The notes: generated by a model not told the origin, from the sequence alone. Shown: positions 1,849 to 62,591, counted from the stretch's first letter. The stretch is 64,000 nt of DNA from a virus (IMGVR_UViG_3300049489_000477:52507-116506); one strand, 5' to 3'. Numbers and translations: made by a program.

Positions 1849-1907
1849 GAGATATCCCCTTGTTGTTTAAATTATACCCTAAAAACCAATTACTTTTTAT
1901 AAGAAAA

Positions 1908-2495: not shown

Positions 2496-2535
2496 AAAAG
2501 AATTATACCAACAAAACCAACAACATTAAGCGTTT

Positions 2536-5336: not shown

Positions 5337-6947
5337 TCAGATTCTCCCTAGCTGCTTTTTGAAAATATCCTTGTCTGACAGTGGGCGCACATATTTATTG
5401 AAGCTCTTAAGAATATCTTCATCTGTTTCGGCGTTTGGATTGTTTTCTTTAGTTTGTGCCGCCTTGCCAGCATAATACATGAAATCGTCTTGATAGTAGC
5501 GGGATCGTAAGGCATATGATACCCAATATGCCGATGAAATCGTATCGTCGTGTAGATTTCGACCCACTCTTGCTTTAAAAACTCCTGGGGTTACTTCTTC
5601 AAAATAGGTGAGTTCTGTGTACATATCACGCGACCGGATGCGTATCTTTCCACATTCCACATCATCTTTAAAAAAGTTTAAAGCCATAGGCTTGGTTTTT
5701 ACATTGGCATTTATGCCATGTTCTGCTCGTTCATAGTCAAAAAAGACATTTTCATACTCTTTATCGTGATAAAGAACCTTACACACGACTTCACCAGTTG
5801 TGTTGTTTTCCACAATGACCATTGGGTTATTGAACATAGGGGTTAACTTGAAAAGAACATCAATAAAATCAAATAACACAATATCATTTTTCCTGAATAT
5901 GCCAACTTGCTCAAAACACTGAGTTGTATTGAACTCGGTAACATCAAAAATGTTTATTACAGAGAAGTCTGTGTTGTTTCCAGCACCTTTAGATACATCG
6001 ACACCAAATGCATACAATCTTCCCTTCTGTGGTTGCTTCCACATATGAAGACCTTCTTCGGTGATATATGCTGCGTCACTTACTTGTTCAGCGAGACGCA
6101 AAAGAGCCTCACCAGAAATAAGTGTATTTGTTGATCCAGTGAAACTACATTCATGTTCTTGATTAAAACGAACCTTACCAAGTATTGCCAATGTTGTATC
6201 GTGCCACGCTTGATCACGATCAGGATGTCTATCCCACTTGACCTTTTTAGAGACGAATGGGTTGGTTATACCATTGATGACTTTTCCAGCGCCAGTGAAT
6301 ATTTCATAGAACTTACCAGTTGATCCGTTTGGTGTAGATACCATGATCATACGACCACCTGTGCTGATGGTCGGGAATACGGATGTGAAGAAGTTTTCTG
6401 CTATTTCTTGTGGCACATGCGCGAACTCATCGAGAGCGAGAAGAGATAACGATTCACCACGGAACGAATCTTCAGCGGTTGTTCCGCCCATGATGGTCGA
6501 TCCGTTATCAAAACCTATTACTGTCTGGTCCCACTTTTCTGCGCCTGGCTTCAAGAAATCCGGCATTTCAAGATATGCCGTCTTAATATCTTTCATAAGA
6601 CTCTTTGCCGACGCTTCTTTGTTCGACAAAATACCAACGGTCTTATCGACATCAAACATGGCAAGCCACAACATATAAATGGACAGACATGTTGACTTAC
6701 CAAGCTGACGCCCGAAATTTAGAACGATGAATCTGTGTTCAACGAATGCAAGTAATGTCTCAATTTGGTAATCGAATAATTTGATGATGTGCTTGCCGCG
6801 TTTTTCTTCGATAACCGTAAAATACTTTTCGGCAAAGTAAATAATATCTTTGGAGCATTTCTTTATTTCGTTGATCTGCTCTGTCGTAAACTCTGTATCA
6901 GAATTTGGACGCTTAAGACCTTTTACTTTATCATAACTTACGGGCAT
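5337..6947 (-). CDS. Terminase large subunit gp17
   Basis: GRQLGKST Walker A, LALDEFAH Walker B, STPNG, FNQEHECSF, GVDVSKG nuclease motif and HDD. Confidence 0.96.
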   Translation of the reverse strand: MPVSYDKVKGLKRPNSDTEFTTEQINEIKKCSKDIIYFAEKYFTVIEEKRGKHIIKLFDYQIETLLAFVEHRFIVLNFGRQLGKSTCLSIYMLWLAMFDVDKTVGILSNKEASAKSLMKDIKTAYLEMPDFLKPGAEKWDQTVIGFDNGSTIMGGTTAEDSFRGESLSLLALDEFAHVPQEIAENFFTSVFPTISTGGRMIMVSTPNGSTGKFYEIFTGAGKVINGITNPFVSKKVKWDRHPDRDQAWHDTTLAILGKVRFNQEHECSFTGSTNTLISGEALLRLAEQVSDAAYITEEGLHMWKQPQKGRLYAFGVDVSKGAGNNTDFSVINIFDVTEFNTTQCFEQVGIFRKNDIVLFDFIDVLFKLTPMFNNPMVIVENNTTGEVVCKVLYHDKEYENVFFDYERAEHGINANVKTKPMALNFFKDDVECGKIRIRSRDMYTELTYFEEVTPGVFKARVGRNLHDDTISSAYWVSYALRSRYYQDDFMYYAGKAAQTKENNPNAETDEDILKSFNKYVRPLSDKDIFKKQLGRI

Positions 6948-18261: not shown

Positions 18262-20007
18262 TTATACTGGAGTTGGGGCTGGCGGCTCTCCACCCTCGTC
18301 ACCACCGGCTGGTGGCTCTCCACCAGCGTCACCGCCTCCCATGTCGCCGCCCATATCGCCACCCATGTCACCGCCGAGGTCGCCTCCACCACCTCCACCG
18401 AGGTCACCTCCACCACCGCCTAATCCACCACCTCCACCAGCGTCACCTTCGGCTTCCTTTTCAAGTCTCTTGTTTATTTCACGTTCGATGTTTCTCTTCT
18501 TAACATTCTCGTCCCAATCATTATCATCAACTTCAAGATACTTCTTGATAACCCATTCTTGTGAAAGTGGCTTGTTTTCTGTATCGATAAGACCTTCGAA
18601 GTGCTTGAATACCTCAAACTTGAGAGAAAGCTTCTTGGCGTTCAAGAACATTTCGTACAAGTTATTCGAGAACATTTCAATATCGATGTCCTCTTCGGAT
18701 ATTCCCAATTCGTCAGAAATATGCTTGAGTTTCAAGTGCGACAAGAAAATATCTTTTAATGCTTTACAGAATCTCTTTGAGTATCTCTTCACATCTTTTA
18801 AGAACTTCAATTCGTCGTGGTTTATATCGCCAGCCGCGCCGAATTGTGTCTTTTTATCTTCGCCCCAACGAGACATTGGAATGTTCATTGCTAAATACAT
18901 TCTCTTTAAGAAGAATTCAACGTCTTGAATCTGATCAAGATGTTGACCGCCGGGCAAGGTTTCTACTTTTGAACCCTTTCCACCAGCAAATATTGGGAAG
19001 TAATAATCTTCGGTCATTGCAATAGGATCAAGACCTTCTGTGACATCACCTGTACTTGGATCGAAGAACTTTCTCTGTCTGTGTCTCTGAATTGTTTCGT
19101 TTAAATATTGTTCTGCTCTTGCTTTTGGTAAGTTACCGACATCGATGTTGAAGATTCTTCTTTCTGGAGCGCGAATAATTCTGTAGATAACAAGCGCATC
19201 TTCCATGAGCTTCAAACGACGATATGTTATCTTGGCATTTTCTAAAAATGAGTAAACTCTGATGTTCTGCTCGTTATCAGAGAACTCGCGTAATCCAGAG
19301 TTAGCATATGCCACCATTTCCTTTGGCATCTGTAGCAACTCTTGTGTTTGTTGAGCATGGTATGTGTAGAAGAAAATTTCATCAGCTTCTAAATCACCAT
19401 AGACGGGATAGACGAGGTTTGTCAAAAGCTTTTTGACTCTTGTAATGCCCAATTCTGGATTGTCGTTATCAATGACTTTTTCAAAGAAAATTTCACCATC
19501 TATCATGTAGTCTCTATACCACATATCGATGTTGTCATTAATTTTCATGACATCATGCATCAATGAGTTGAACTCGGCTTGAATGGTTTGCCGCTGATGT
19601 TCGTCTTCTCTTATGGCTTTTGACTTGATTTTAAGGTGTACGCAATTACCTTCATCATCGAAATTCACAGCCTCATCGACATACTCGTTTACAGCAAACG
19701 AAACAACAGGATACTTTGACATTTCACGGTATAGGCGTAAACTTTCTCTCTTATCGTTTTCAACACGATAGATTAACTTCGAGAAAATATTTAACTGGCT
19801 CTGAAAGTCACCAACTGCTAAGTCTTTTAACTCCGAGACTGCGATCTTATTCTTATCTTTTTTAATTTCTTGCGGCTTTTCATTTCCAGAAATAGCATTG
19901 AAAATGGTCTTTCGAACATTAGCAATTTGTGTTTGTTCATGTGGGGTAAGATTCTTAGCACGCTTATTGATGCCGCCCGTATATGAAAAATAGTCGCCTA
20001 TAGCCAT
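18262..20007 (-). CDS. Portal protein gp20
   Basis: YREMS.YP and MEDALVIYRIIRAPERRIFNIDVGNLP motifs; EDYYFP, ETLPGGQ and P.SR motifs; Gly-rich tail. Confidence 0.96.
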   Translation of the reverse strand: MAIGDYFSYTGGINKRAKNLTPHEQTQIANVRKTIFNAISGNEKPQEIKKDKNKIAVSELKDLAVGDFQSQLNIFSKLIYRVENDKRESLRLYREMSKYPVVSFAVNEYVDEAVNFDDEGNCVHLKIKSKAIREDEHQRQTIQAEFNSLMHDVMKINDNIDMWYRDYMIDGEIFFEKVIDNDNPELGITRVKKLLTNLVYPVYGDLEADEIFFYTYHAQQTQELLQMPKEMVAYANSGLREFSDNEQNIRVYSFLENAKITYRRLKLMEDALVIYRIIRAPERRIFNIDVGNLPKARAEQYLNETIQRHRQRKFFDPSTGDVTEGLDPIAMTEDYYFPIFAGGKGSKVETLPGGQHLDQIQDVEFFLKRMYLAMNIPMSRWGEDKKTQFGAAGDINHDELKFLKDVKRYSKRFCKALKDIFLSHLKLKHISDELGISEEDIDIEMFSNNLYEMFLNAKKLSLKFEVFKHFEGLIDTENKPLSQEWVIKKYLEVDDNDWDENVKKRNIEREINKRLEKEAEGDAGGGGGLGGGGGDLGGGGGGDLGGDMGGDMGGDMGGGDAGGEPPAGGDEGGEPPAPTPV

Positions 20008-47602: not shown

Positions 47603-47618
47603 CAGGTAGGAGCTATAT

Positions 47619-48392: not shown

Positions 48393-48445
48393 ACTCTCGG
48401 CTTGAATAGATTTATTGGTGGCTATAATCCGTAAAAGGATTTCAT

Positions 48446-49189: not shown

Positions 49190-49199
49190 AAGTTGATGC

Positions 49200-49412
49200 A
49201 TGAAAAAGACAGAAGATTTAGCTTTTGAATATCAAAGCCGTGTACACAAAGCAGCAGCGCCAGAAGGATATGAGATTATCCAAAGTCCATATGAACAAGT
49301 AAGGCGCGATGATTTGAAATACACAGCCAATAATGCGTGGGCAGAAATTGGCGGCAGCGAAGGTATTCGCGCATTGGGATTTTATTTAGTCGCTCGTAAA
49401 ATACATCAATGA
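49200..49412 (+). CDS. Hypothetical protein
   Basis: 70 aa, within the operon. Confidence 0.55.
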   Translation: MKKTEDLAFEYQSRVHKAAAPEGYEIIQSPYEQVRRDDLKYTANNAWAEIGGSEGIRALGFYLVARKIHQ

Positions 49413-49425
49413 AAGGTTATCGTTT

Positions 49426-50349
49426 ATGCCGATTAGTGATAGTCCATGGGTCGAAAAATATAAACCACGAAAGATCGATGATGTTATAGGCGATCCTGTA
49501 ATGATCGGTAAATTCAAAGAGTTTATCGAAAAGAAGGATCTACAACATCTTCTCTTTTGTGGGCGACCAGGCACAGGTAAAAGCACATGTGCCAAGCTGC
49601 TTGCCAACGAGATAACATCAGAAAACAATGTCATGTACATCAATGCCTCCGAAGAAAAAGGCATTGATGTACTTCGTAATAAAGTCGCAAACTTCTGCCA
49701 GATGACTTCATTTGGTAAATTGCGCATTGTCATATTTGATGAATTCGATGGCATGTCATGGCAATCGATGGATGCCATGCGCAATACCATGGAAGAATAC
49801 ATTTCAAATAGCCGCTTCATTTTGACATGTAATTATGAACGAAAGATTATTGAGCCTATAAAGTCTCGCTGTCAAATGTGGGACTTCACGGCAAATGAGA
49901 ATGTGCAAAAAGTCGCCATCGGTAAAAAGTTATTAAGCATACTTCGAAGCGAGGATGTTACCGTACCAGAGAAATCCGACATCATTAAACTCGTTCACAA
50001 ATTCTATCCAGACATTCGGCGCACCATCAATGCTCTTCAAAAATTAACAATTAATAAAGTATTCTCGTTTAACAATGAATTGTTAGATAATAACTACGAA
50101 GATAAGTTGCTTTCTCATCTAAAAGATATGAATATAAAAGCAATTAGAGAAGAATTGTTGGGGCATGCCGATTATAATGAAATGTACCGAATTCTTTTCT
50201 ATAAAGCTGGCGACATCAATGTGGACAAGAAGCTACAAATCATGAGTATTGTAGGCGATGCCGTTCGCTGGCATTCAATCGTATTAGATCCTGAGATAAA
50301 CTTCGTCACATGTCTTCTTAAAATATGCGAAGAGATTAATAAAGAATGA
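49426..50349 (+). CDS. Clamp loader ATPase gp44
   Basis: WVEKYKP, GRPGTGKS, INAS, DEFD, FILTCN, SRC and PDIRR motifs. Confidence 0.94.
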   Translation: MPISDSPWVEKYKPRKIDDVIGDPVMIGKFKEFIEKKDLQHLLFCGRPGTGKSTCAKLLANEITSENNVMYINASEEKGIDVLRNKVANFCQMTSFGKLRIVIFDEFDGMSWQSMDAMRNTMEEYISNSRFILTCNYERKIIEPIKSRCQMWDFTANENVQKVAIGKKLLSILRSEDVTVPEKSDIIKLVHKFYPDIRRTINALQKLTINKVFSFNNELLDNNYEDKLLSHLKDMNIKAIREELLGHADYNEMYRILFYKAGDINVDKKLQIMSIVGDAVRWHSIVLDPEINFVTCLLKICEEINKE

Positions 50350-51305
50350 TATTTGATTTCTTCAAGGTACTTTTTAAAAACAAGCAAGGTTCGCCAAAAG
50401 AACCAGCACAAGAGGATACTTTGGAAACTCCAGATGCGGTCCAATTGGTAAATATGAATGTACCGGAACAAACCAATGAACCACCAAAAGTAACACCAGC
50501 AAAAGTCATTCGGGAAAGCCAGAAGCCACCATCAGTTAAAAATATTCCACCAAGTAATTTAAAAAAAGATGCTATAATCAATAATATACCTCACAAGGAG
50601 CCTTCAATGTCGGAAATATTTTTAGTCGTTTTAGATGCAACTGGAAGAACAAACTTCAAGGCACTTACACAGAATATACAAAACTTCTACTTTGTATATG
50701 CAACCGACGAAGCAAGAGCCAAGGAAATGGTTTTGTATTCGTTCCTCCGATCCCAACGCCGCCCAGCCGATCAGTTGATAAATGAAATTCAAGCTGCTCT
50801 AAAAGCGACAAGAATGTCGGCTATTCTTCGGAACATGAATGAACAGAACAACTTCTGGACCTATGTTCCATTCGGTCGCAAGCCGGGCGCTGGTCAGCAA
50901 ATTGTAGCACCAGATCCGTCACGCATGGTTCACCACACCGATCCGAATATGCCCGATGCAACATCGGCAAGAGCATATGTTCCTGCCGCGCCCGCTAGTG
51001 GTGTCGAGGTAACACCAGATGATTTGCGTGGGGTACAATTCAGCGCCCAAGACGGTGCTGTGCTGAATAAACTCAAAGCAACGGCAAATGGCGGCAAGGT
51101 ACCAATGCCATTGACCGAAGATGCTCCACCGTTAAATCCCGAGAACGAAGAAGTCGTTCGCCAGGTCAAGGAACAAAACAATCAATTGCTTGAAGCCAAT
51201 AAGCAAATGATGGCGAAGATGGAAGCTATGATAACCGCTATGAGTCAGCCAAAGAAGCGTGGTAGAAAACCAGCCGACGAAACCCAGCCACCACAAGAAG
51301 GCTAA
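50346..51305 (+). CDS. Hypothetical protein (possible internal start at 50607)
   Basis: 319 aa between gp44 and gp62; AAGGAG RBS before ATG 50607. Confidence 0.65.
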   Translation: MIFDFFKVLFKNKQGSPKEPAQEDTLETPDAVQLVNMNVPEQTNEPPKVTPAKVIRESQKPPSVKNIPPSNLKKDAIINNIPHKEPSMSEIFLVVLDATGRTNFKALTQNIQNFYFVYATDEARAKEMVLYSFLRSQRRPADQLINEIQAALKATRMSAILRNMNEQNNFWTYVPFGRKPGAGQQIVAPDPSRMVHHTDPNMPDATSARAYVPAAPASGVEVTPDDLRGVQFSAQDGAVLNKLKATANGGKVPMPLTEDAPPLNPENEEVVRQVKEQNNQLLEANKQMMAKMEAMITAMSQPKKRGRKPADETQPPQEG

Positions 51306-51308
51306 TAC

Positions 51309-51740
51309 ATGGAAAAACGAGTTGGGTTGACTAAGAAAGAAAAACCGAAATCGACAGCGTTTTTCGATGTGTTAAAAGACATACGAACAACCAAACAAGG
51401 AAACTTGTTCGATGTTGAGGGGTCGGCTTATGAGAACGAATTCAGCCCCATGATGGCTCTTCGCTTTCTTTCCATGAATGAAGAATTGTGCCCGCTCGTA
51501 AATTCCATAAATCACATTCAAGATTCGTTTGATAAAAAACAGATATACACATTGCTTATCGAGTTGATTCCAAAGACACAATATAGCCAATTCATCAAGT
51601 CGCATAAAGAACACTTCGAATATGAAAAGGATGTTGCTGACTATTACCAATGTTCATTGAAAGACGCGAGAGAGTACATCAAACTCATGGGATCAGCCTG
51701 GGCAGAAGAGATACACAGGTCATACGGAGGCGCACAATGA
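51309..51740 (+). CDS. Clamp loader small subunit gp62
   Basis: FD.L..I, F.P.M..R.LS and V..YY.CS...A.EY motifs. Confidence 0.85.
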   Translation: MEKRVGLTKKEKPKSTAFFDVLKDIRTTKQGNLFDVEGSAYENEFSPMMALRFLSMNEELCPLVNSINHIQDSFDKKQIYTLLIELIPKTQYSQFIKSHKEHFEYEKDVADYYQCSLKDAREYIKLMGSAWAEEIHRSYGGAQ

Positions 51741-52126
51741 CTATTGGTATAAAAGTAGAGCTTCTTACAGATTATTCCATCATTTGTGAAACACTTGAAC
51801 GCATTGGTGTTGTAAACAAGAAAGAGAAGAAAATCTATCCATCGTGTTATTGTCATAAAATGACAGATGACGCCGGAAACACAGAATATCGTATTTGTCA
51901 CTTTAAAGAAATGTTCACACTACAAGGTAAGCCGACAACTTTTAATAACCTTGATAAGTTGCGTTTAAAAACAATAGTTTATTTCTTAATAAAGTGGAAT
52001 CTTATACGAGTTGAAAAAGCCATTGATGAAATTTTAAAAGAAAAAATCGATATTGTCAAATATAGTGACAAAAAAGATTATAAAATAATTCATAAATTTA
52101 AGCATAACGAGCAACCAGAGGCTTGA
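51737..52126 (+). CDS. regA: Translational repressor RegA
   Basis: ETLERIGV, K.Y.SC, YRICHFKEMF.L.G, W.L and K...K..Y.I..K motifs. Confidence 0.9.
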   Translation: MTIGIKVELLTDYSIICETLERIGVVNKKEKKIYPSCYCHKMTDDAGNTEYRICHFKEMFTLQGKPTTFNNLDKLRLKTIVYFLIKWNLIRVEKAIDEILKEKIDIVKYSDKKDYKIIHKFKHNEQPEA

Positions 52127-52169
52127 TATTCAAAATACACTCCTATAATCTCAAATTATAGGAGTTCAC

Positions 52170-52481
52170 ATGCGTAAGACAAAAAATACCGACGATGTAC
52201 CAGCCGATGAGGCGACCAAGCCACAGAAGCCCAAGAAAGAGTTCGAAGTAACCATCACGATCTGGGATGACGGTGAGGTTACGAATAAACTTGTAGAGTT
52301 TATTAAAAAGGAGCGTGGCGCTCCCGAAAAGTGGCTGCGTAAGCCCGATCAGTTCAATGCCGCCATTAAGGACAAGATTTCAGAGAATCCTGTCCTCTTA
52401 CTGGAAAAGATTGCCGAAGGATTGAGTATCAATCTGTCAGCTTTCTTCGCAGCCAAGACAAAAGCCGAAGAAGGTAAGTAA
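52170..52481 (+). CDS. Hypothetical protein
   Basis: Upstream TTGATA...TATAAT promoter and AGGAG RBS. Confidence 0.65.
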   Translation: MRKTKNTDDVPADEATKPQKPKKEFEVTITIWDDGEVTNKLVEFIKKERGAPEKWLRKPDQFNAAIKDKISENPVLLLEKIAEGLSINLSAFFAAKTKAEEGK

Positions 52482-52485
52482 GCAT

Positions 52486-52899
52486 ATGCGCTACGCCCTT
52501 GGCTTTTGCTTTACCACTGATAAAAAGCATGTGGCTTTGATTCATAAAGAAAAGCCATTGTGGCAAGCCGGTTATGTAAACGGCATTGGTGGAAAAATCG
52601 AAGAGAACGAATCGCCAATTGACTGCATGCAACGAGAGTTTCGTGAAGAAACCGGTGTTGACATCAACAATTGGCGATTCTTTTGTGTGGTGAGTGGAGA
52701 ATGGGGTGAAATCCATATCTTCAAAGCATTCAACAATAAAGTTTGGAGCGCAACCACACAAGAGGAAGAAAAAGTCGAGATTATGGAGATTGATAAGCTA
52801 CCGTATAACATGATGATTCAAAATCTACGGTGGATTATCCCCTTGGCATTAGATAAAGATGATGTTGCTGGTGATATGCGAGAACGAAAAATACAATAA
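52486..52899 (+). CDS. NUDIX hydrolase
   Basis: GGKIEENESPIDCMQREFREETG Nudix box. Confidence 0.9.
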   Translation: MRYALGFCFTTDKKHVALIHKEKPLWQAGYVNGIGGKIEENESPIDCMQREFREETGVDINNWRFFCVVSGEWGEIHIFKAFNNKVWSATTQEEEKVEIMEIDKLPYNMMIQNLRWIIPLALDKDDVAGDMRERKIQ

Positions 52900-52909
52900 G
52901 GAACATACT

Positions 52910-53089
52910 ATGATGCAAAAGAATCTACTCAATGCATATGAGAAACTTGATCATTTGCGCGAGCGACTTGAATTCTCGGGTCTAAAGAAAGAGTGCGACA
53001 TTCTTGAAGAGGCGCGAGAAGAGTTGAACAGGTATCTGGCTGTTGTCGAGAAGTTCGATAGAACCGGTAAAAAGAAGTTTGACGAATGA
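52910..53089 (+). CDS. Hypothetical protein
   Basis: 59 aa, AAGGA RBS. Confidence 0.55.
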   Translation: MMQKNLLNAYEKLDHLRERLEFSGLKKECDILEEAREELNRYLAVVEKFDRTGKKKFDE

Positions 53090-53547
53090 ACTTTTCACAA
53101 GTTAAGAGAGATATCTATTACGGTTCTGAAAAGAACCATACGTTCTGGATAGTCAAGGAATCAGATAAATTCAAAGCATCTGTATGGGTACTTTTACCAG
53201 AACCATCTACAGAGCCAATACAAGAAGCTTCATTTGGATCAAAGGAAGAAGCCGAAGAATATCTCAACGGTATTTCCGCGACCATTGGCTTGAAATTGGT
53301 GAACGAAGCTAAACCTTTACCTAACATAAAGAATGCATTTGAAGAACTGCTATCTCACGCCCGCATGGAAATGATACGGGATGGTAGTGGTCGTGGCATA
53401 ATAAAAATCGATTTTCGTGTCAATATATCAGAGAATCCACTTCATAAATTCATATATGAATACAAGCATACCATAGATAATACCAATGCGGGCGTCGATG
53501 AATACAACAAGTATTTACAGCTTAAGGCAAAATACGAAGGAAAATAA
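53086..53547 (+). CDS. Hypothetical protein
   Basis: 153 aa, ATGA-coupled to the upstream gene. Confidence 0.6.
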   Translation: MNFSQVKRDIYYGSEKNHTFWIVKESDKFKASVWVLLPEPSTEPIQEASFGSKEEAEEYLNGISATIGLKLVNEAKPLPNIKNAFEELLSHARMEMIRDGSGRGIIKIDFRVNISENPLHKFIYEYKHTIDNTNAGVDEYNKYLQLKAKYEGK

Positions 53548-54533
53548 TGAGCGACTTTAATGTAGTATCCGATGAAGAGTTTGCCGTTATTTTGCGGGCA
53601 AGGAAAGAAAAACAACATGAGGAATACAAATATCTCCACTTGCTCCAAGATATTATGGAGAAGGGTGTCACGAAAGGCGACCGCACTGGTACGGGGACCA
53701 AAAGCTTATTTGGCACGCAACTTTCATTTGATGTTTCAAACTCATTACCCGTGTTGACCACCAAGAAAGTTTTCTTTAAAGGAATTGTTGAAGAGTTGCT
53801 TTGGTTCATTAGGGGTGATACAGATTCAAAGTTACTTGAAGCCAAAGGTGTGAATATCTGGAAAGGAAACACTTCTAGAGAGTTTCTTGACAAAAGGGGT
53901 CTGGATTATCCAGAAGGCTTCGCCGGTCCCGTGTATGGTTTCCAATGGAGGCATTGGGGCGGTGGATACAACATCAGAGCATTAATCAATGATGGTAATA
54001 TAACATATACGCAACAAATTGGTCAAGTTACACCTAGTAGTGGTAATTACGGAGTAGATCAACTTGCGAATGTCGTTGAAACTTTAAAAAAGAACCCTAA
54101 TGACCGTAGAATGATAGTTAGCGCATGGAATGTTGCTGAATTAGATCGAGTAGCACTTCCAAGTTGCCACTTGCTTTATCAGTTTGATGTATCTGATGGA
54201 AAATTAAATTGCCAGTGGTATCAGCGCAGTTGTGATACTCTACTCGGAATTCCATTTAATATAGCATCATATGCATTATTGACTTATCTTATCGCAAAAA
54301 TAACCAATCTAAAACCAGGAACTTTGACATTTACTGGCGGCGATACGCACATCTATCTTAATCACATCGACCAGTGTAAGGAACAGATTTCAAGAACACC
54401 ATATCCGTTTCCTAAACTGAATATCAAGAAAGACATTAAGACACTTGAAGATATTGAGAACCTTCAATTTGAAGATTTTGAATTGGTAGATTACATGTAT
54501 CATCCAGCGATTAAAGCTCCGATGGCGGTATAA
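53547..54533 (+). CDS. thyA: Thymidylate synthase
   Basis: DRTGTGT, EELLWF, GPVYGFQWR, PSCH, QRSCD...G.PFN and GDTHIY motifs. Confidence 0.96.
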   Translation: MSDFNVVSDEEFAVILRARKEKQHEEYKYLHLLQDIMEKGVTKGDRTGTGTKSLFGTQLSFDVSNSLPVLTTKKVFFKGIVEELLWFIRGDTDSKLLEAKGVNIWKGNTSREFLDKRGLDYPEGFAGPVYGFQWRHWGGGYNIRALINDGNITYTQQIGQVTPSSGNYGVDQLANVVETLKKNPNDRRMIVSAWNVAELDRVALPSCHLLYQFDVSDGKLNCQWYQRSCDTLLGIPFNIASYALLTYLIAKITNLKPGTLTFTGGDTHIYLNHIDQCKEQISRTPYPFPKLNIKKDIKTLEDIENLQFEDFELVDYMYHPAIKAPMAV

Positions 54534-54535
54534 GT

Positions 54536-54709
54536 ATGTTAATCAACCCAAACTATCTCGCTAATATTCTTTTTCATAAACTTCAAATGTTCGATGAAGG
54601 TCGAAAGATTGAAAGTTTAACGATTAAGGAAATACAAGAACTCGCTTATAACATCAACCAAGAGATTGAACACGACAATAAAAAAGGTGATGACGAGCCG
54701 CCATTTTAA
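54536..54709 (+). CDS. Hypothetical protein (57 aa, not in ORF track)
   Basis: MLINPNYLAN...DDEPPF, starting right after the thyA stop. Confidence 0.5.
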   Translation: MLINPNYLANILFHKLQMFDEGRKIESLTIKEIQELAYNINQEIEHDNKKGDDEPPF

Positions 54710-54717
54710 GGACTTAT

Positions 54718-54897
54718 ATGAGAAACTACGAATTGCGCCTCCAACTTATCATAGCCAAAGCCCAGCTTCTTTTAAAGGAACCTGGAAGACCCTGGCATAG
54801 CGACATAAAAGCTGCGCTTGCTGAAATCGCATCGGAAGCTAAAAAAGCCTACGACGAAGTAGCCAACGATAGAGGCTGGGAAGCGGGTGACAGATGA
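54718..54897 (+). CDS. Hypothetical protein (59 aa, not in ORF track)
   Basis: AAGGA RBS; MRNYELRL...; ATGA overlap with the next gene. Confidence 0.6.
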   Translation: MRNYELRLQLIIAKAQLLLKEPGRPWHSDIKAALAEIASEAKKAYDEVANDRGWEAGDR

Positions 54898-55265
54898 GTG
54901 AAGAATTGTCACCGTGGGAAGATTATTTGAAGATGCTTGATATGTATATTCCTCAAGTAATTAGTAAAGAAAGAAAGTTAACCCATTTAGAATTTGCTAT
55001 GCCGTGGTACTCTAAAGAGTATTCACAGATGGTATATGGAACACTTGTTAATTTCCTTCAATGGAAGAAATTTTTAAATCTTGATGTACCAGAGTTTGGA
55101 AGTGAAGAACACATGGATAAAATTGATAAAGGTCTTTTGGGGGAAGATACGATAGCAGAATATACACTCAAAGACGGATTTAACATCAAGGATATACAGA
55201 CCGAAGAAATGCATAAGGATTTCAGAGGTATGTTGGATACACACTATGAAGGATGGATAAAATAA
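54894..55265 (+). CDS. Hypothetical protein
   Basis: 123 aa, coupled to the upstream gene. Confidence 0.6.
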   Translation: MSEELSPWEDYLKMLDMYIPQVISKERKLTHLEFAMPWYSKEYSQMVYGTLVNFLQWKKFLNLDVPEFGSEEHMDKIDKGLLGEDTIAEYTLKDGFNIKDIQTEEMHKDFRGMLDTHYEGWIK

Positions 55266-55266
55266 C

Positions 55267-55527
55267 ATGGCAGATAAACCAATTGAAATATTCAGAGAAT
55301 TGATATGGAGAGCCAACCCATGGCTTCATGATTGTGAACGTCATTCCATGCAAGTAGCTTGGGACAAGTATCGTGAAACTGGTGAAAGACCATCAGAATA
55401 TTACTTGCCTGGAGGAATGATTAAGAAACTGACCGCTGAACAGCGGGAGATTCTTTCAAAGCTGACTTCGGATGAAGTTTCTAAAGAAGCTAATCCACAC
55501 ACATGGTATAAAAAGGAAAACAAATGA
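55267..55527 (+). CDS. Hypothetical protein
   Basis: 86 aa, within the operon. Confidence 0.6.
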   Translation: MADKPIEIFRELIWRANPWLHDCERHSMQVAWDKYRETGERPSEYYLPGGMIKKLTAEQREILSKLTSDEVSKEANPHTWYKKENK

Positions 55528-55721
55528 GCAAAAAAACAAAAAGTAAATCCAGTGGTCAAATTTTTACTTTAGAATTATCTAAAGATAAACTTATAGAAAT
55601 ACTCACACCGATACTTAAGAAAAATAAAGTTATTAAAGATCAAGTCATTTACGACTTTATGATTTCATTAGACACTAACCAGCGATTTCATTCTATGACA
55701 GTTGTGATGTTACCAAAGTAA
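55524..55721 (+). CDS. Hypothetical protein
   Basis: 65 aa, AAGGA RBS and ATGA overlap. Confidence 0.55.
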   Translation: MSKKTKSKSSGQIFTLELSKDKLIEILTPILKKNKVIKDQVIYDFMISLDTNQRFHSMTVVMLPK

Positions 55722-55724
55722 ACG

Positions 55725-56105
55725 ATGCTCAAATCCTTCCAAACATACTTCAACGAAGCAACTGACGAGGAAATCGTACAGTTCTTTTCTGCGTTCACAG
55801 CCGAAGAGCGTAACAAAGAATTCGCTGATATGTTTGGTCTGATTAGCTGCATCTTACGAGTCAAAGACGGTGACGATTGGGTTCGTAAATATTTCGTCTA
55901 CAGAGACTTGATCGTTAAGGAAGTCGATACCAGCACCCTTGGACCGGCGCTCGATAAGATCATTGCAGCCAACGAGAAAGCCTGGAAGGAATATACTGGC
56001 GGTAAAGAACAAGCCATTGGTCGGTTTATTGGGCAACTAGCTAAAGCAACGGGTGTAACTCCACAAGACGCGAAGGTGTTTATAGAGGCGAGGAAAGCAA
56101 AATGA
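55725..56105 (+). CDS. Protein with a GatB/YqeY-like C-terminal domain
   Basis: LDKIIAANEKAWKEYTGGKEQAIGRFIGQLAKAT resembles the GatB tail domain. Confidence 0.6.
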   Translation: MLKSFQTYFNEATDEEIVQFFSAFTAEERNKEFADMFGLISCILRVKDGDDWVRKYFVYRDLIVKEVDTSTLGPALDKIIAANEKAWKEYTGGKEQAIGRFIGQLAKATGVTPQDAKVFIEARKAK

Positions 56106-56269
56106 CCATTCAAGACGATTTCAGACAATTTTCAGAAGATGAATCTCTGATTATGAAAGTTAATCAAAAGCCTGACAGATCAATTCATATAATTGATGTC
56201 GGAAACGCTTCCAAAGAGGCGGCAGAAGAAGCCATACAAAAACTACGCGAAAAATTCAAAGGAACATAA
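56102..56269 (+). CDS. 55-aa mini-protein similar to the portal clip segment (not in ORF track)
   Basis: AGGA RBS and ATGA overlap; PDRSIHIIDVGNASKEAAE versus portal [19 protein letters not shown]. Confidence 0.75.
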   Translation: MTIQDDFRQFSEDESLIMKVNQKPDRSIHIIDVGNASKEAAEEAIQKLREKFKGT

Positions 56270-56270
56270 C

Positions 56271-56513
56271 ATGGCATTTAGCGGCGTAAGACACACCAAA
56301 AAGATTCTAAAAGAAGTCAATTTAGCAATCGCGGATTTACAAAAGGCAAAAGAACACCTTGAGTATTGTAATGACACAAAAGGGCTGTATTGTGATGGCA
56401 GACCCGATGAAGTCGATGCTTCAAAAGAAGAAACGGAAGGGGAAGCTCTTTCGTGTATGAGTGAAGCAGAAGCCCGTTTATCAACCATTTTGACAGAGAA
56501 CGGAATGATGTGA
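56271..56513 (+). CDS. Hypothetical protein
   Basis: Start at MAFSG with AAGGA RBS, just after the mini-portal stop. Confidence 0.6.
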   Translation: MAFSGVRHTKKILKEVNLAIADLQKAKEHLEYCNDTKGLYCDGRPDEVDASKEETEGEALSCMSEAEARLSTILTENGMM

Positions 56514-57322
56514 AAGCCTTTGTTTTAGCCGATCCACAAGGACAAATACGCGATAGGGATCAACTCGACCTCTACGACGGCTATCTCGCATTGTGTTACG
56601 ACACGAAGCTCGTAACTGCATCCGACATATACTCTAATAAAGAGAAAATAACCAGAGACGATATTTTCTGTGGGCATGTGCAGCTTTGTCAATACATCTG
56701 GAAGCAGCTTAAAGTGGCTGATCCGTGCATCCCCAACTATCCAGAGGAACTTAAAGAGTATTTTGGTCGGTCGATTCGCAAGATGAAATTCTATCAATTT
56801 AGGAATCTCCTCAAAGAGAACGAAGAATTTGGAAACATATACTTCGTCAAGCCCGTCAAGAATAAGCTATTTACAGGATTCACATGTGTAACCGAACAAG
56901 AATGTCTTTCTAAAACAAACTGCTCGCCAGAAACAGATGTATATGTTTCTAGCTATGTAAACTTCGGAGCAGAATTCCGTGCCTATGTCTATAAAGGCAA
57001 GGTCGTTGATTGCTTTAGATATTGGGGTGATGATTGGAAAGTCACTATTCCACATATGAACATTGAAGAAATGGTCAGTAAACTCAATATCAATGCCGTA
57101 TTCTACAGTCTTGATGTTGGCATAGATATCGACAAGAAACAAACACTTCTTATGGAAGTCAATGATGGGTACGCTCTTGGTAACTACGGACTCGCACCAG
57201 TTGATTATGCTCGATACTCGGCTGAAAGATGGCGTGAGATAATGAAAGACCCATTGGATGTAGACCCGTCCAAATGGTCGAAAGCATGCGAGAAGATGGG
57301 TTGTGAAAGAGTAGATTTTTAA
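56510..57322 (+). CDS. ATP-grasp ligase (R2K/DUF4343-like)
   Basis: FVKP...K.FTG, EFR.YV, LDVG and EVNDGYALG.YG motifs. Confidence 0.8.
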   Translation: MKAFVLADPQGQIRDRDQLDLYDGYLALCYDTKLVTASDIYSNKEKITRDDIFCGHVQLCQYIWKQLKVADPCIPNYPEELKEYFGRSIRKMKFYQFRNLLKENEEFGNIYFVKPVKNKLFTGFTCVTEQECLSKTNCSPETDVYVSSYVNFGAEFRAYVYKGKVVDCFRYWGDDWKVTIPHMNIEEMVSKLNINAVFYSLDVGIDIDKKQTLLMEVNDGYALGNYGLAPVDYARYSAERWREIMKDPLDVDPSKWSKACEKMGCERVDF

Positions 57323-57332
57323 AGGAAATACT

Positions 57333-57626
57333 ATGAACCACCGGAAACTTCGCAAACTCGCTGAACAAGCAACACATGGACCATGGTTTAGAAGTGCAGG
57401 AAGGACAGATGAATTTGATATATGGCATTATGAAATAGGTCCAGTTGGCACAAGAGAAAATCTTCACCAATATGAAGATACTATATGTGAGTGTACGGAT
57501 GCTGAACACGATGGAGCAAGAAACGGTGCATATATCGCCGCATGCGATCCGAATACCATCATTGGTCTGTTAGATGAAATAGCGAATTTAAAAAAGAAAA
57601 TTAAGAAATTAAAAGGATCCAGATGA
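57333..57626 (+). CDS. Ead/Ea22-like protein
   Basis: LAEQATHGPW and N..YIAACDP.TI..LLDEI motifs. Confidence 0.75.
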   Translation: MNHRKLRKLAEQATHGPWFRSAGRTDEFDIWHYEIGPVGTRENLHQYEDTICECTDAEHDGARNGAYIAACDPNTIIGLLDEIANLKKKIKKLKGSR

Positions 57627-57943
57627 TTTACTTTATTGACTTCGATGGTACGATATGCCCAGGTGGACCACCAACCGCTGCATGTGTCCGTACCATCAAA
57701 AAACTCAAAGAACATAACCACACGGTTGTCATTTATTCGTGTCGATCCAATCCAAATTGCGTGGAAGATGCTGCATTTGAAACCGCCGAAATGGTGAATT
57801 TCTTAAAAACATACGGAATTCCATTTGACCGCATAGAACCCAACAAGCCGCTATTCAACTTCATCATTGACGATCGAGCATTGGGTGTTCCATTGACTCC
57901 ACAACATGATGTTGATTGGGAACGCATAGAAAGACTCATATGA
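57623..57943 (+). CDS. Small HAD-family phosphatase
   Basis: DFDGT, YSCR, KP and IDDR motifs. Confidence 0.85.
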   Translation: MIYFIDFDGTICPGGPPTAACVRTIKKLKEHNHTVVIYSCRSNPNCVEDAAFETAEMVNFLKTYGIPFDRIEPNKPLFNFIIDDRALGVPLTPQHDVDWERIERLI

Positions 57944-58323
57944 AAAAAGCATTCAAATTTAACATAAAAGACATCGTAAGTGTAACTGACGGTGATACAT
58001 GTACCATGAATGTCGATTTAGGATTTAAACTCACATACAAGGTAAATGTTCGTGTTTCTGGTATTGATACTCCAGAAAAATCCACACCAGAAGGAAAGAT
58101 CGTCAAGAAAAAGGTTGAAGAATGGTTCACACAAGGATCTGACTTTACCTTGGAATCCCATAGTCTTGACAAATATGGTCGTGTACTAGGTGATATTCGC
58201 AACGGTAAAAATGTTTCTCTGTCGGCATACCTTATTGATAACCAGCTTGGAAGATACTATAAAGGCGACAAGAAAGTTGCATGGACAAAAGCTGAAATAG
58301 AAAATATTCTGAAAATGGCATGA
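57940..58323 (+). CDS. Thermonuclease (SNase-like)
   Basis: V.DGDT, DLGF, R..GIDTPE and DKYGRVLG motifs. Confidence 0.9.
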   Translation: MKKAFKFNIKDIVSVTDGDTCTMNVDLGFKLTYKVNVRVSGIDTPEKSTPEGKIVKKKVEEWFTQGSDFTLESHSLDKYGRVLGDIRNGKNVSLSAYLIDNQLGRYYKGDKKVAWTKAEIENILKMA

Positions 58324-58356
58324 TGTAATTTTTCACATTATCAGTATAATACCATT

Positions 58357-59430
58357 ATGAAGGTTCCGCAGCACATTGCCAAAGAAATTTTTTCTCGAAC
58401 GGTTCGTGCTGTTGAACAAGTAAGAACATCCAATCTCTTTTTGTACAGAGGTCATTGCCCAATTTGCAACGATCTTAAGAAAAAGAGAATGTATTTGAAG
58501 GAATATCCAGAGCATTATTTGGTATATTGCCACAATTGCGGATATTCACATAAATTTGAAGTGTTCTTAAAAAATAACTATCCGAGCGAATATGTTAAGC
58601 TCAAGCCGTATATTTTCGAATCCATCAAAAACGGTTCCTTTGCCCGCCGCAGAGAAAGTGTAAAATTCGAACCCGTCAAGCGGCTCTTGACGGATGAAGA
58701 TATCAACCGGAAGCTAACAACATATCTTCCAATGGTTTCATTTAACATCATGGATGAGCAGCTTGATACTCGTCGGGAGAAGTATCGGGCGCTCTGTTTG
58801 AAGTATCTTATTGACCGCCGCATACCCGAAGCCGTATTCAGAGACTTCTATTGCATATATGCCAGGTCACTGGCTGGATACATCGGAATACCGTTCTTCG
58901 ATAAGACGAAAAAGAACCTACTCCATGTTCAAGGCAGATTAGTCCTGCCGCGCAAGAACCCTGGATATGAACAACAAAAGTATCTGTTTTTAAAAGATTC
59001 AGACATGGGTGTAGAGCTTGAATCAAAACAATTATGGGGTATGTGGCGCATCCAATCCGACAAGCCTGTTATTATTTGTGAGGGCACGCTGGACGCCTGC
59101 GCATTCGAGAATGGAGTAGCTACATGCGGAGCCACCTTAAGCGAAACCTTTATTCGCAATATTATAAAACAGTATAAAAATAGAATATGGTGTGTCGATA
59201 ATTACTTTTTAGACAAAGCAGGACGAGACTTGACCCAGCGACTTTTAGAAATGGGTGAATCGTGCTTTGTCATACCAAGGAACATGATTGACAAAAAAGA
59301 TGCCAACGATCTTATAAAAGACACCTTCAAGGAATATACATATATTCCCGAGTCGTTTATTCAAGAAAATACATATGTCGGCGGCGTTAATGGAGGAATG
59401 GGATTAAGTAAGTTGCGTATACTTACTTGA
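58357..59430 (+). CDS. DNA primase gp61
   Basis: CPIC...YCHNC zinc finger, IPF, QGR, EG.LD TOPRIM motif, DN and KD.ND. Confidence 0.9.
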   Translation: MKVPQHIAKEIFSRTVRAVEQVRTSNLFLYRGHCPICNDLKKKRMYLKEYPEHYLVYCHNCGYSHKFEVFLKNNYPSEYVKLKPYIFESIKNGSFARRRESVKFEPVKRLLTDEDINRKLTTYLPMVSFNIMDEQLDTRREKYRALCLKYLIDRRIPEAVFRDFYCIYARSLAGYIGIPFFDKTKKNLLHVQGRLVLPRKNPGYEQQKYLFLKDSDMGVELESKQLWGMWRIQSDKPVIICEGTLDACAFENGVATCGATLSETFIRNIIKQYKNRIWCVDNYFLDKAGRDLTQRLLEMGESCFVIPRNMIDKKDANDLIKDTFKEYTYIPESFIQENTYVGGVNGGMGLSKLRILT

Positions 59431-59920
59431 TCCTGTTCATCACATCAAGCCACGGTCCACCCAACTCACGCATTTGCAGCAACACATATTCGCGCAATGC
59501 GGTGTCTTTTATGACCAATTGATCGGTGCGCTGGGCTAACGACTCGGGGGTGCCGATAACCCGTATGAGCAACGCATGGAAGGCGAAAATGGTGTCAATG
59601 TACTTGGTCATCATTTCCTGCATAACATCTTGCTTGCGTGCGTTTTCGTTCAATCTCGCAACCTCTTTAGCCACGGACTTACTTATGAGTGGGCTAGTAT
59701 CGGAAGGTACGAAATCGTGTGGTACAGTATCCGTTTTTTCAAATCTCCGCACAAACTCCGATGTAGTTGTTTTTGAAACGAACTGGTCGGCTGCACCCTC
59801 ATGTTCATGTGGGGCATGTGGAATATCTTTGTAAGTCACTGTCCCGTCAGGATTTTTGACAACAATCTTCAAATCCCCGTTCACATAACACAAGTCGCAA
59901 ATAGTGTCTTTATCGTTCAT
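59423..59920 (-). CDS. Hypothetical protein
   Basis: 165 aa, AAGGA RBS, convergent with the primase gene. Confidence 0.6.
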   Translation of the reverse strand: MNDKDTICDLCYVNGDLKIVVKNPDGTVTYKDIPHAPHEHEGAADQFVSKTTTSEFVRRFEKTDTVPHDFVPSDTSPLISKSVAKEVARLNENARKQDVMQEMMTKYIDTIFAFHALLIRVIGTPESLAQRTDQLVIKDTALREYVLLQMRELGGPWLDVMNRIK

Positions 59921-60011
59921 TTTTATATTCCTTGCAGTAAGAATACACAGATTTTTTAAAATTCAACCTATTTATTTTTATCTGACATGATATAATTACC
60001 GCGAGGTTATT

Positions 60012-61895
60012 GTGAATATTATTATACCGTTAGGTGGCATTGGTGAGCGTTTTAAAAAGGAAGGGTATAGTCTTCCCAAACCCTTGGTCCGAGTTAACGG
60101 CACATGCCTACTCAATCTCGTTCTCCAGAAACTGAAAACATCACAAGAAGACACAATTTTCATAATTTATAACAAGGTACTGGATGATTACCAATTCAGT
60201 AACATCATCAAATTCCATAACAAGAATCTTAACATCAAATTTATTGAAATTGATTTTAAGACGCGAGGCGCGGCTGAAACAATATTGTGCGGTCTGAATA
60301 CATTCACAGAAGAACAATTGAACGATTTAACCTTATCAATTGACTGCGACACATACTACGACGATGACATCATCACGGCATGTAAAAAGATCAATGATAA
60401 TCTCATATTTTATTTCACCGATACCGATACAAAGCCCATTTACTCATACATTGAATTTGATCAGTCAAACAGAGTCTACGGCATTAAAGAGAAGATAAAA
60501 ATTTCGGATAATGCCAATGTTGGTGCGTACTGCTTCAAGAATGGAACGACTCTCAAAAAATACTGTGAAATATTGACCGATACGAATTTGTCAGACAAAA
60601 AAGAATACTATGTTTCAAACATATACGCAACAATGCTTACAGATGGTCATCAAGTAAAAGCCGAAAAGATAGAAAATTTCAAAGTTCTTGGAACACCAGA
60701 GCAACTTCAAACATACTGCTTGACAACGGAACATGCGAAGAAGAGAAGGTTCTGTTTTGATCTGGATAACACACTTGTAACCTATCCGCAAATAGACGGG
60801 GACTACTCATCAGTATTACCGATCAAAAAAGCAGTAGAATATGTCAGGTTTCTCAAATCACACGGACATACGATCATCATTCACACAGCCAGGCGCATGA
60901 AGACGCATAATGGCAATGTAAATGCTGTTGTTGCTGACATTGGAAAAGTCACCATCGAGACACTTGAAAAGTTCAACATTCCTTACGATGAAATTTGCTT
61001 TGGAAAGCCATATGCTGATTTCTATATTGATGACTTATCAGCAAATCCATTCGTTGATATGGAGAAGCAGACCGGCTACTATATGCCGACCATTGAAAAC
61101 AGAAAATTTAATACCATTGAAATGTTCGAAAATGAGGTTGTCAAGTATTCGAAGAGTGATTCTATCTGTGGTGAGATACATTGGTATAAGAACATACCCG
61201 AAGAAATAAGCGACCTATTTCCGAAGTTGCTAGATGCTGGTGACCATAAGCTCAGAATAGAAAAGATTCACGGAATACCCGTATCGCTTCTCTACACAAA
61301 CTTGTCGTTAACCAAATCGCATTTACACAGAATATTTGATAGCATAGATAGAATCCATAACATAAGACCATATAATATAAAAAAATTCTATGGCTACTAT
61401 ACAAAAAAGTTAATAGAACGCCACGAATTAATCAATTATGCAACCTTTAGCCCGTCATCTGAATTAACATTTGTTGATTTGATGGGTAAACTCATCAAGT
61501 ATGAAGAAACTATTCGGTTAACATGCATCCACGGTGACCCCGTATTCACCAATATACTCATATCTAACAACAGTGATATAAAGTTTATCGATATGCGTGG
61601 CATGGTGAATGGTGAACTAACAATTTGTGGCGATTATCTGTATGACATTGCAAAAATCTACCAATCAATCATTGGATATGATTTCATCCATGCAGGAAAA
61701 GAACCAGCGACCGAATACATCAACAAGATGAAGCTTATATGTGAAGCAGAAATTGTCGCCAGATATGGTGAAGAAAATCTCAAGAAAGTCAAGCTCATTT
61801 GTGCATCGTTATTGTTCACACTGATACCGCTCCATAGCGACATGCAAAAGCAACAAGAATACTACAATCTTATCGAAGGACACAATCTCTTATGA
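60012..61895 (+). CDS. Nucleotidyltransferase + HAD phosphatase + APH/choline-kinase-like fusion
   Basis: IIPLGG.G.RF...PKPL and LGTPE; FDLDNTL, TARRM and GKP...YIDD; HGD...TN, FIDMRG and YD.AK. Confidence 0.85.
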   Translation: MNIIIPLGGIGERFKKEGYSLPKPLVRVNGTCLLNLVLQKLKTSQEDTIFIIYNKVLDDYQFSNIIKFHNKNLNIKFIEIDFKTRGAAETILCGLNTFTEEQLNDLTLSIDCDTYYDDDIITACKKINDNLIFYFTDTDTKPIYSYIEFDQSNRVYGIKEKIKISDNANVGAYCFKNGTTLKKYCEILTDTNLSDKKEYYVSNIYATMLTDGHQVKAEKIENFKVLGTPEQLQTYCLTTEHAKKRRFCFDLDNTLVTYPQIDGDYSSVLPIKKAVEYVRFLKSHGHTIIIHTARRMKTHNGNVNAVVADIGKVTIETLEKFNIPYDEICFGKPYADFYIDDLSANPFVDMEKQTGYYMPTIENRKFNTIEMFENEVVKYSKSDSICGEIHWYKNIPEEISDLFPKLLDAGDHKLRIEKIHGIPVSLLYTNLSLTKSHLHRIFDSIDRIHNIRPYNIKKFYGYYTKKLIERHELINYATFSPSSELTFVDLMGKLIKYEETIRLTCIHGDPVFTNILISNNSDIKFIDMRGMVNGELTICGDYLYDIAKIYQSIIGYDFIHAGKEPATEYINKMKLICEAEIVARYGEENLKKVKLICASLLFTLIPLHSDMQKQQEYYNLIEGHNLL

Positions 61896-62590
61896 AAGTA
61901 GCTGTTTGTTTTTCTGGTCAGCCAAGATATCTCGGCAATCAGTATGAAAAGATACATAAGACTCTGATAGAGCCATATAATTCCGATGTCTTTATTCATT
62001 GCTGGTGGGATCCGTCGTATATCGGGCAAAGATTCGATTTTTCTCCCCACGCCTCATCCCGAACGGGCACCTGGGAATTCAACACAGATTTTAAAGTAAA
62101 ACAGCTATACAACCCCAAAAAAGTTGCATTTGAACCCCACAAGAACTTTGACATGACAGCCTTTGCTGGTGCTAATTTTGAGAGACAGTCGCCACACATA
62201 TTAAAGAGCATGTGGTATTCTGTTAACAAAGCAAACCAGTTAAAAGCCGAATACGAAAAAGAAAATGCGATGGTGTATGACCTTGTTATACGCACCCGTT
62301 TTGATTTGAAGATTGAGTCATTTTCGTTGGATTTGAACGCAGTAGATACGAATAAGATATATGTTTCGGGTGAAATAAATCCATTATGTAACGATCAGTG
62401 CGCTTTCTCTAGCTCAAAGAACATGGATATCTATTGTGATTTATATAACAGACTTGAATCTTATTGGGTAAATGATAAACTCCCGAGTATGGTCAATGAA
62501 AAGGTGCTAACACACCACTTAAACAAAAACAAACTTGATATACATTTTTGTAGCAAAGATGAAATGTATGTCAATATATTAAAGGTATAA
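61892..62590 (+). CDS. Putative glycosyltransferase-like protein
   Basis: KVAVCFSGQPR, DVFIH.W, YDLVIRTRFD and ND motifs, as seen in glycan clusters. Confidence 0.6.
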   Translation: MKVAVCFSGQPRYLGNQYEKIHKTLIEPYNSDVFIHCWWDPSYIGQRFDFSPHASSRTGTWEFNTDFKVKQLYNPKKVAFEPHKNFDMTAFAGANFERQSPHILKSMWYSVNKANQLKAEYEKENAMVYDLVIRTRFDLKIESFSLDLNAVDTNKIYVSGEINPLCNDQCAFSSSKNMDIYCDLYNRLESYWVNDKLPSMVNEKVLTHHLNKNKLDIHFCSKDEMYVNILKV

Positions 62591-62591
62591 T

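Follow-up and report, generated by a model that had tools for sequence, protein, structure and literature searches.

Why a phage that carries an intact portal gene should also encode, far away from it, a separate small protein resembling one segment of that portal is the question raised by this locus. The window analysed, meaning the whole stretch of 64,000 nucleotides under study, formed the final 64 kb of an IMG/VR viral contig of 116.5 kb (completeness estimate 62%), and the phage was a divergent T4-like one whose best cultured portal relatives were only about 31% identical. A gene for a 55-aa mini-protein was found on the plus strand at 56102..56269, stop included, as established by ORF reading, homology, family and mapping on T4, and the exact protein sequence quoted in a preliminary description of this DNA was reproduced. 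The start signals and neighbouring gene boundaries reported there were also read at the same positions. In particular, a Shine-Dalgarno-like stretch (56085..56094, +), read directly as GAGG (56085-56088) and GAGGA (56090-56094), was separated by 7 nt from the ATG (56102-56104), which overlapped the TGA (56103-56105) of the upstream 126-aa gene (55725..56105), and the TAA stop (56267-56269) was followed by the next ATG at 56271. The ATGA overlap at 56102-56105 suggests translational coupling of the mini-protein with the upstream gene. Moreover, an identical protein was present in a public protein collection, with a precomputed PF07230 match attached.

The intact full-length portal gene of the phage, encoding a 581-aa protein of the T4 gp20 family, was located on the minus strand at 18262..20007 (325 bits for PF07230; E 7e-42 with T4 gp20 structures), at a measured distance of 36.1 kb from the mini-protein gene, close to the 36 kb given before. 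By alignment, the whole mini-protein was homologous to portal residues 258-312, encoded at 19072..19236 (-). A BLASTP comparison with the own portal gave 31.2 bits (E 7e-7), with 18/44 identities and one 4-residue gap, and a recount of the ungapped 31-residue match first reported gave the same 14 identical positions out of 31. The Smith-Waterman score between both proteins was 71, a value reached by 0/5000 shuffles (31.1 +/- 4.8, maximum 69). Furthermore, residues 12-53 matched positions 192-233 of the 433 in the Pfam profile PF07230 (Portal_T4) with an E-value of 1.6e-5, and the portal family phrog_213 matched the mini-protein with an E-value of 4.8e-5. Membership of Portal_T4 by score was marginal, since 24.3 bits were obtained for the protein (cut-off 22.9) and 19.4 bits, under the cut-off, for the same stretch in a six-frame scan of the whole 116.5-kb record. 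As judged from these alignments, the likeness to the own portal is far beyond chance, and the mini-protein and the stem/clip segment of the portal are truly homologous. In the six-frame scan of the 116.5-kb record, no Portal_T4 signal was detected besides the portal and the mini-protein ORF, and no portal homology was found in the ORF flanks; a split, intron-interrupted or decaying second portal gene was therefore ruled out.

Some other features of the portal and of partial gene copies were recorded. The C-terminus of the portal (18262-18450, -) consisted of a low-complexity tail of ~60 residues rich in Gly, Asp and Met, with GGGG, DLGG and DMGG runs and a Pro-rich end; it lay beyond the Pfam-covered residues 88-505, and the T4 gp20 alignments ended at residue 510. 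A comparison of 793 small ORFs with 80 large ORFs revealed no further convincing fragment of a structural protein in the genome. The 106-aa ORF at 57623-57943 (+) resembled residues 270-343 of a 627-aa nucleotidyl-transferase protein (60012-61895, +), with 31% identity over 74 aa (E 1.3e-6), and is the second small ORF of this genome that is paralogous to a portion of a larger gene. Outside the window, a cluster of small ORFs (C1:25331-29575) was paralogous to repeats in a 204-aa protein (C1:26207-26821), with identities of up to 56%.

On T4 gp20, residues 10-49 of the mini-protein aligned without gaps to residues 266-305, and the own portal aligned to gp20 at an offset of +1; residue i of the mini-protein was thus equivalent to residue i+256 of gp20 and i+257 of the own portal. 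According to Sun et al. 2015 (PMC4493910), the gp20 stem is formed by residues 255-278 (helix alpha5) and 359-377, and the clip by residues 279-358, with three strands and helix alpha6. When the +256 offset was laid on these domain limits, the mini-protein therefore represented gp20 257-311, comprising alpha5, clip strand 1, the tip and alpha6. The span from stem to clip that had been proposed earlier stood as regards the stem helix alpha5, and had to be narrowed in the clip to its first third (strand 1, tip and helix alpha6). Wing, crown, channel loops and two of the three clip strands were missing, with 42/433 profile positions covered, so that the mini-protein cannot form a portal. Extending the ungapped alignment, residues 32-55 were the positional equivalent of gp20 288-311, with the same last residue (311), and the conserved strand and tip, at residues 24-37, carried KPDRxIxIIDVGN. 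An AF2 monomer model built on an 18-row alignment (pLDDT 64, low) presented helices at residues 3-20 and 38-53, which coincided with gp20 alpha5 and alpha6 after the +256 offset, and an unstructured centre; this predicted fold is compatible with the portal topology with an unpaired strand.

The mini-protein belonged to a family of stand-alone proteins. An exhaustive HMMER scan of 1.84 billion representatives (E <= 0.001) returned five proteins, all small (55, 57, 60, 55 and 38 aa), and the four relatives were 52-60% identical to the query. The profile of these five found 18 proteins, the query and 17 others, among 163 candidates of 20-105 aa, the 17 other members having 38-89 aa, scores of 39-116 bits and 35-66% identity to the window member. 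Regarding their length, nine of the 18 had 55-60 aa, two were shorter, with 38 and 44 aa, possibly through decay or miscalling, six had 75-81 aa, with an insert of ~20 residues following the first helix, and one of 89 aa (P0014) extended slightly further into portal-like sequence. In a weak model of the long subfamily (pLDDT 55), strand E34-38 was paired with the insert strand E49-53. Absent or decaying homologues, named in the preliminary description as a result that would refute its reading, were not what was found: 17 small homologues with conserved ends were recovered, and the reading was not refuted in this respect. An N-terminal motif, M-x-x-IQDDFxQFSEDE, was common to all full-length members and missing from portals, the core PxRxIxxIDVGN...AEE...L/I-K-E-K-Y/F-K was common to the family, and the position of the stop was conserved (...EKYK-x-x). 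Positions I31, D32 and N35 were invariant (N35 corresponding to gp20 N291 and kept in 18/18), and R26, V33, A41 and K51 were nearly so. The portal family phrog_213 was matched by 15 of the 18 members. No fused forms appeared among the best 120 of 350 longer-protein matches, all of them ordinary PF07230 portals with <=51 bits. The family was rare (18 clusters among 5.8 billion), and the window member was a singleton at 90% identity.

The residues retained were compared with a set of 23 distinct portal segments and 16 full portals. In own-portal numbering, the portal invariants P281, R283, D289, V290, G291, N292, A298 and E299 were kept by the family, Y275, R279, A280, R284 and F286 were lost, and L293 and P294 were additionally lost in the subgroup of the window member. 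The tip read N-L-P-x-x-K in 9/18 members, N-A-T/S-x-E-V/A in 8/18, including the window member, and N-F-S-K-D-Q in the remaining one. Accordingly, the portal consensus L-P at the tip was lost in the eight 'GNAT/GNAS' members, and the Lys at the gp20 K296 position was kept by 9/18 members and gone in those eight and in P0003. By this comparison, the strand and alpha6 are constrained, alpha5 is loose and the tip exists in two flavours.

Further collections were searched for the family. When the single sequence was used in a word-indexed search for relatives of near length, only the query itself was returned, and the ESM Atlas gave no usable match. In IMG/VR, the scans with the single protein and with alignment A1 returned 39 and 316 stretches, respectively, none of which was related, and 489 of the 599 stretches returned with the long-subfamily alignment A4 were related; the 80 loci kept from the latter matched residues 47-74 only (47-77 in one) and were discarded as true portals. 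A degenerate DNA pattern for the long-subfamily insert had no matches in IMG/VR, and the family was not found there beyond this record by the protein, alignment and DNA-pattern scans. A metagenome scan with alignment A3 gave two loci: L009, a real relative, and L010, an ordinary 602-aa portal that was set aside. The only match of the GTDB genome scan fell within a membrane protein of 745 aa encoded by a GC-rich MAG and was rejected as a chance match to a AEEAVKRLREKY stretch. Among 50,697 cultured-phage records, 984, 914 and 2366 were matched by tblastn with the queries P0001, P0015 and P0010, respectively; the places equalled the records for each query, except for one extra place for P0010, and the query with the own portal likewise gave one extra place. 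No free-standing copy in these 50,697 records was seen among the matches listed (best 60 of 984, 30 of 914 and 12 of 2366), all of them on portal genes; a match in an unannotated 1866-nt gene adjoining terminase (H76) was read as a portal. Finally, no report of a natural portal-fragment gene or of a portal-fragment decoy was found by full-text searches of the main text of open papers.

The member encoded in the metagenomic relative (P0009 in L009) overlapped its upstream gene in the same ATGA-type manner (181 vs. 184), and the RBS and gene-overlap coupling were conserved in both known loci (window and L009; n=2). For this codon pair, dN was 0.27 and dS 0.7-2.2, with identities of 69/76/58% by codon position, which suggests dN below dS for a single pair in which dS is saturated; selection is better argued by the conserved ends across 35-66% identity than by one saturated pair. 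Overall, the mini-protein is very probably a real, conserved, portal-derived gene, and its sequence relationships point to a free-standing accessory gene exapted long ago from a fragment of a T4-type portal gene rather than to a remnant.

The genomic setting bore out the earlier placement among small accessory genes. The mini-protein gene was the first of a variable accessory island (56102..58356, +), delimited by comparison with the locus L003 and located between the conserved 126-aa gene and a primase-like gene. The island comprised six genes, namely the mini-protein, an 80-aa ORF, an R2K ATP-grasp, an Ead/Ea22-like gene, the 106-aa ORF and an SNase-like gene. The locus L003 was the closest relative found (79% identity on the upstream gene) and displayed td, a 57-aa gene, the 126-aa gene, an unrelated 89-aa ORF and the primase-like gene; the mini-protein was not found in this 32-kb fragment. 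The variable and accessory character of the island follows from these six genes in the window vs. one unrelated ORF in the L003 gap.

As to the genes around it, the upstream 126-aa gene (55725-56105, +), 79% conserved in L003, had a GatB/YqeY-domain match (PF02637, E 1.6e-7, 31.8 bits, cut-off 27). The 270-aa R2K-clade ATP-grasp (56510-57322, +), two genes downstream of the mini-protein in the same island, matched PF18299 (E 1.8e-30) and phrog_7313, and no relatives of this gene were found in IMG/VR by a pattern scan. Proteins of 57-60 aa ending in ...(D/G)DEPPF adjoined accessory islands in three related contigs (window 54536-54709, L003 2828-3001 and L009 1777-1959). Moreover, L003 carried at 1873-2598 (-) a 241-aa ORF with an N-terminus that looked GIY-YIG-like by eye, between thymidylate synthase and the 57-aa gene, which was missing from the window, and two ORFs of the same sort flanked the L010 portal.

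The mini-protein gene was co-directional with clamp-loader-like (gp44-like), RegA, NUDIX, thymidylate synthase and Toprim primase-like genes. The T4 late-promoter consensus is TATAAATA. This motif occurred 14 times in the window vs. 4.8 expected, and 0/100 shuffles reached 14. All 14 occurrences were within 985-47602, and 12, on the minus strand, immediately preceded structural genes (for example at 20075-20082, ahead of the gene pair ending in the portal); none was present in 47603-64000. This distribution points to the use of T4-type late promoters in this divergent phage. By analogy, from its neighbours and the absence of the motif, the mini-protein gene would likely be early or middle, and the portal and terminase genes late. 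A scan for sigma-70 promoters and terminators around the mini-protein gene gave counts at the shuffle expectation.

The portal clip is a single hub, shared by the packaging motor, the neck and bacterial immune sensors of at least three kinds. Docking of terminase on the segment, as asserted in the preliminary description, agreed with PMC4493910, where gp17 faces the clip-tip residues N291, M292, R295 and K296 of gp20 and where a 24-residue gp20 288-311 peptide is cited (its reference 34) as binding gp17 and inhibiting packaging; docking of gp17 on the clip also appears in PMC9958956. Regarding the neck, the C-terminal arm of gp13 inserts between adjacent alpha6 helices and a clip strand, where R295 and K296 engage in charge contacts with it, and gp14 is contacted by N291 and K309 in a mis-assembled complex (PMC12929587). 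The further claim that portal proteins are detected by bacterial immunity was likewise supported, this immunity touching the same segment, and was extended by Avs11, which also senses the portal; Avs sensors envelop the core of their target over extended interfaces (10.64898/2026.01.04.697583). As for SpbK, it attaches through its N-terminal domain to the clip helix of the SPbeta portal, and its activation follows from clustering on the dodecamer. Furthermore, EcAvs4 binding is incompatible with portal oligomerisation, and all four portal subdomains make inter-subunit contacts (PMC12847820).

The best explanation overall, proposed here tentatively, is that of an exapted portal fragment acting as a clip mimic, with a host sensor as its preferred target. 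A fragment of a T4-type portal gene has very probably become a stand-alone accessory gene, and its product would be a soluble mimic of the exposed clip tip that competes for a factor normally docking on the portal clip. The central strand, left without structure in the monomer prediction, would thus probably become folded on pairing with a partner. That the mini-protein acts by competitive mimicry of the clip is slightly more probable than not; that the target is a host portal sensor is a possibility on the unlikely side. The preferred target would be a host immune sensor of the portal stem/clip (Avs4-, Avs11- or SpbK-like), which the mimic could occupy without offering the full monomer surface or the 12-fold clustering needed for activation. 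A small early protein would then blind portal-sensing defences (of Avs4, Avs11 or SpbK type) ahead of the synthesis of the real portal, and the two tip variants (N-L-P-x-x-K and N-A-T/S-x-E-V/A) could reflect an arms race with the sensors.

A host sensor is slightly favoured over terminase or neck as the partner, since the gene is an accessory one of patchy distribution, located outside the late module, since two known sensor types contact the stem/clip helices carried by the mini-protein, and since a sensor dependent on the full monomer surface or on 12-fold clustering could be defeated by a monomeric mimic. Counted against the host-sensor reading is that a 55-aa piece covers only part of the extended Avs-type interface. 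Counted against the best explanation in general are the tip of the window member, devoid of the portal L-P and of the Lys at the K296 position, and the low confidence of the models (pLDDT 64 and 55). The strongest form of this reading, namely that the gene would be the first natural phage-encoded free copy of its own portal clip tip serving as an immune decoy, is doubtful.

Among the alternatives, binding of the mini-protein to the large terminase or to a gp13-like neck adaptor at the portal-docking site survives best, and is unlikely. It might keep the own motor inactive as long as no proheads are ready; the more plausible variant is that packaging or head completion is blocked in T4-like competitors infecting the same cell. 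The large terminase subunit of 536 aa (5337..6947, -) would be the candidate partner, in analogy to gp17 of T4. Residues 32-55 match the inhibitory gp20 288-311 peptide position for position, N291 and K309 have retained equivalents (N35 in 18/18; K53 in the window member), the Lys at the K296 position and a portal-like N-L-P tip occur in 9/18 members, and the clip alpha6 helix and strand are also the docking site of gp13 (PMC12929587). However, only one of the four gp17-contact positions was kept in the window member (N35), M292, R295 and K296 being replaced by A36, E39 and A40, and a simple T4-style charge contact with terminase is weakened by Glu39 and Ala40 standing at the R295 and K296 positions, where the own portal has Ala and Arg. 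An inhibitor of the own packaging would also fit poorly with a replication-gene cluster lacking late promoters and away from genes 16/17/20, and the absence of the gene from the closest relative found (L003) argues against a core morphogenetic regulator.

It is improbable that the gene encodes a small helix-strand-helix protein of portal descent with an unrelated job, such as that of a regulator. The strong divergence of the alpha5 part, the ~20-residue insert in six members and the metabolic or replicative neighbour genes would suit this reading. Nevertheless, the best-conserved part is the partner-docking strand, tip and alpha6 of the portal, with portal invariants retained, and no other Pfam or PHROG functional family matches.

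Quite improbable is a third alternative, in which the clip strand of the mini-protein would pair with the clip sheet of full-length portal monomers, either shielding the stem/clip from monomer-specific sensors until assembly or poisoning rival portal rings. The central and most conserved strand is the one left unstructured in the monomer model, and its pairing with the insert strand in the low-confidence model of the long subfamily suggests the need for a partner; the inter-subunit contacts of all four subdomains and the incompatibility of EcAvs4 binding with oligomerisation (PMC12847820) agree with it. However, Y275, R279, A280, R284, F286, L293 and P294, invariant in 16 aligned portals, were lost, and a broad poison would hit the own portal too. 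Complex prediction for own-portal residues 86-510 (16-row alignment) with the mini-protein (10-row alignment) gave 0.00 in both runs, with no controls, and is counted neither for nor against this reading.

A non-functional open remnant of a captured portal gene fragment, as might be read from the singleton status at 90% identity, the absence from one close relative found, the lack of free copies among the cultured-phage matches listed and the two truncated members (38 and 44 aa), is very improbable given that 18 divergent members keep the start, the stop and a family N-terminal motif foreign to portals, that the RBS and overlap coupling are conserved in two known loci, that the flanks show no portal homology and that dN < dS.

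For the preferred reading, a clip mimic directed at a host sensor, the consequences would be of interest beyond this phage. If the mini-protein is a decoy, phages can counter the recognition of indispensable structural proteins without altering them, and 'structural-protein-fragment decoys' would be a new class of anti-defence genes; if it is directed at terminase, it would be a natural packaging inhibitor used between phages. In addition, a separately encoded, conserved copy of the clip hub offers a compact natural reagent. Either way, accessory genes can arise through exaptation of pieces of core virion genes, and annotation pipelines should consequently not dismiss short matches to structural families.

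Several known systems resemble this one in part. The closest is the T4 gp20 clip and its 288-311 peptide: the mini-protein has its homologous segment in gp20 257-311, and the peptide is matched in position by residues 32-55. However, the peptide is a laboratory product and the mini-protein a natural, separately encoded and conserved gene, with Ala, Glu and Ala in place of M292, R295 and K296. With Portal_T4 (PF07230, phrog_213) it shares homology above the Pfam cut-off, in contrast to the full wing-stem-clip-crown of that family (~430 profile positions) retaining only profile positions 192-233 of 433 in 55 aa. Two PHROG families of unknown function come into play as well. The first, phrog_23805 (72 profile positions), matches the strand-tip-alpha6 core in 8/18 members (best E 1.2e-5) and the own portal weakly, and the second, phrog_12349 (97 profile positions), matches the same core in 4/18 members; the window member itself had no match to either at E <= 1. 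Since both match the same core, analogous small portal-fragment genes may exist in reference phages.

Eukaryotic microProteins, such as the Id proteins and LITTLE ZIPPER, are small and descend from the interaction module of a larger protein, whose functional domains they lack. The mini-protein is likewise small, homologous to an interaction module, devoid of the other domains and encoded by a conserved stand-alone gene, but kingdom and targets differ, and the dominant-negative action is here a proposed one. Finally, Ocr (PMC12409349) is a DNA mimic to which the mini-protein is comparable as a small accessory product encoded away from the structural genes that could occupy a host sensor. In contrast to Ocr, which mimics DNA, the mini-protein would mimic a structural protein of the phage itself; mimic proteins are already known, and here a mimic or competitor accessory protein would be derived from a core virion protein.
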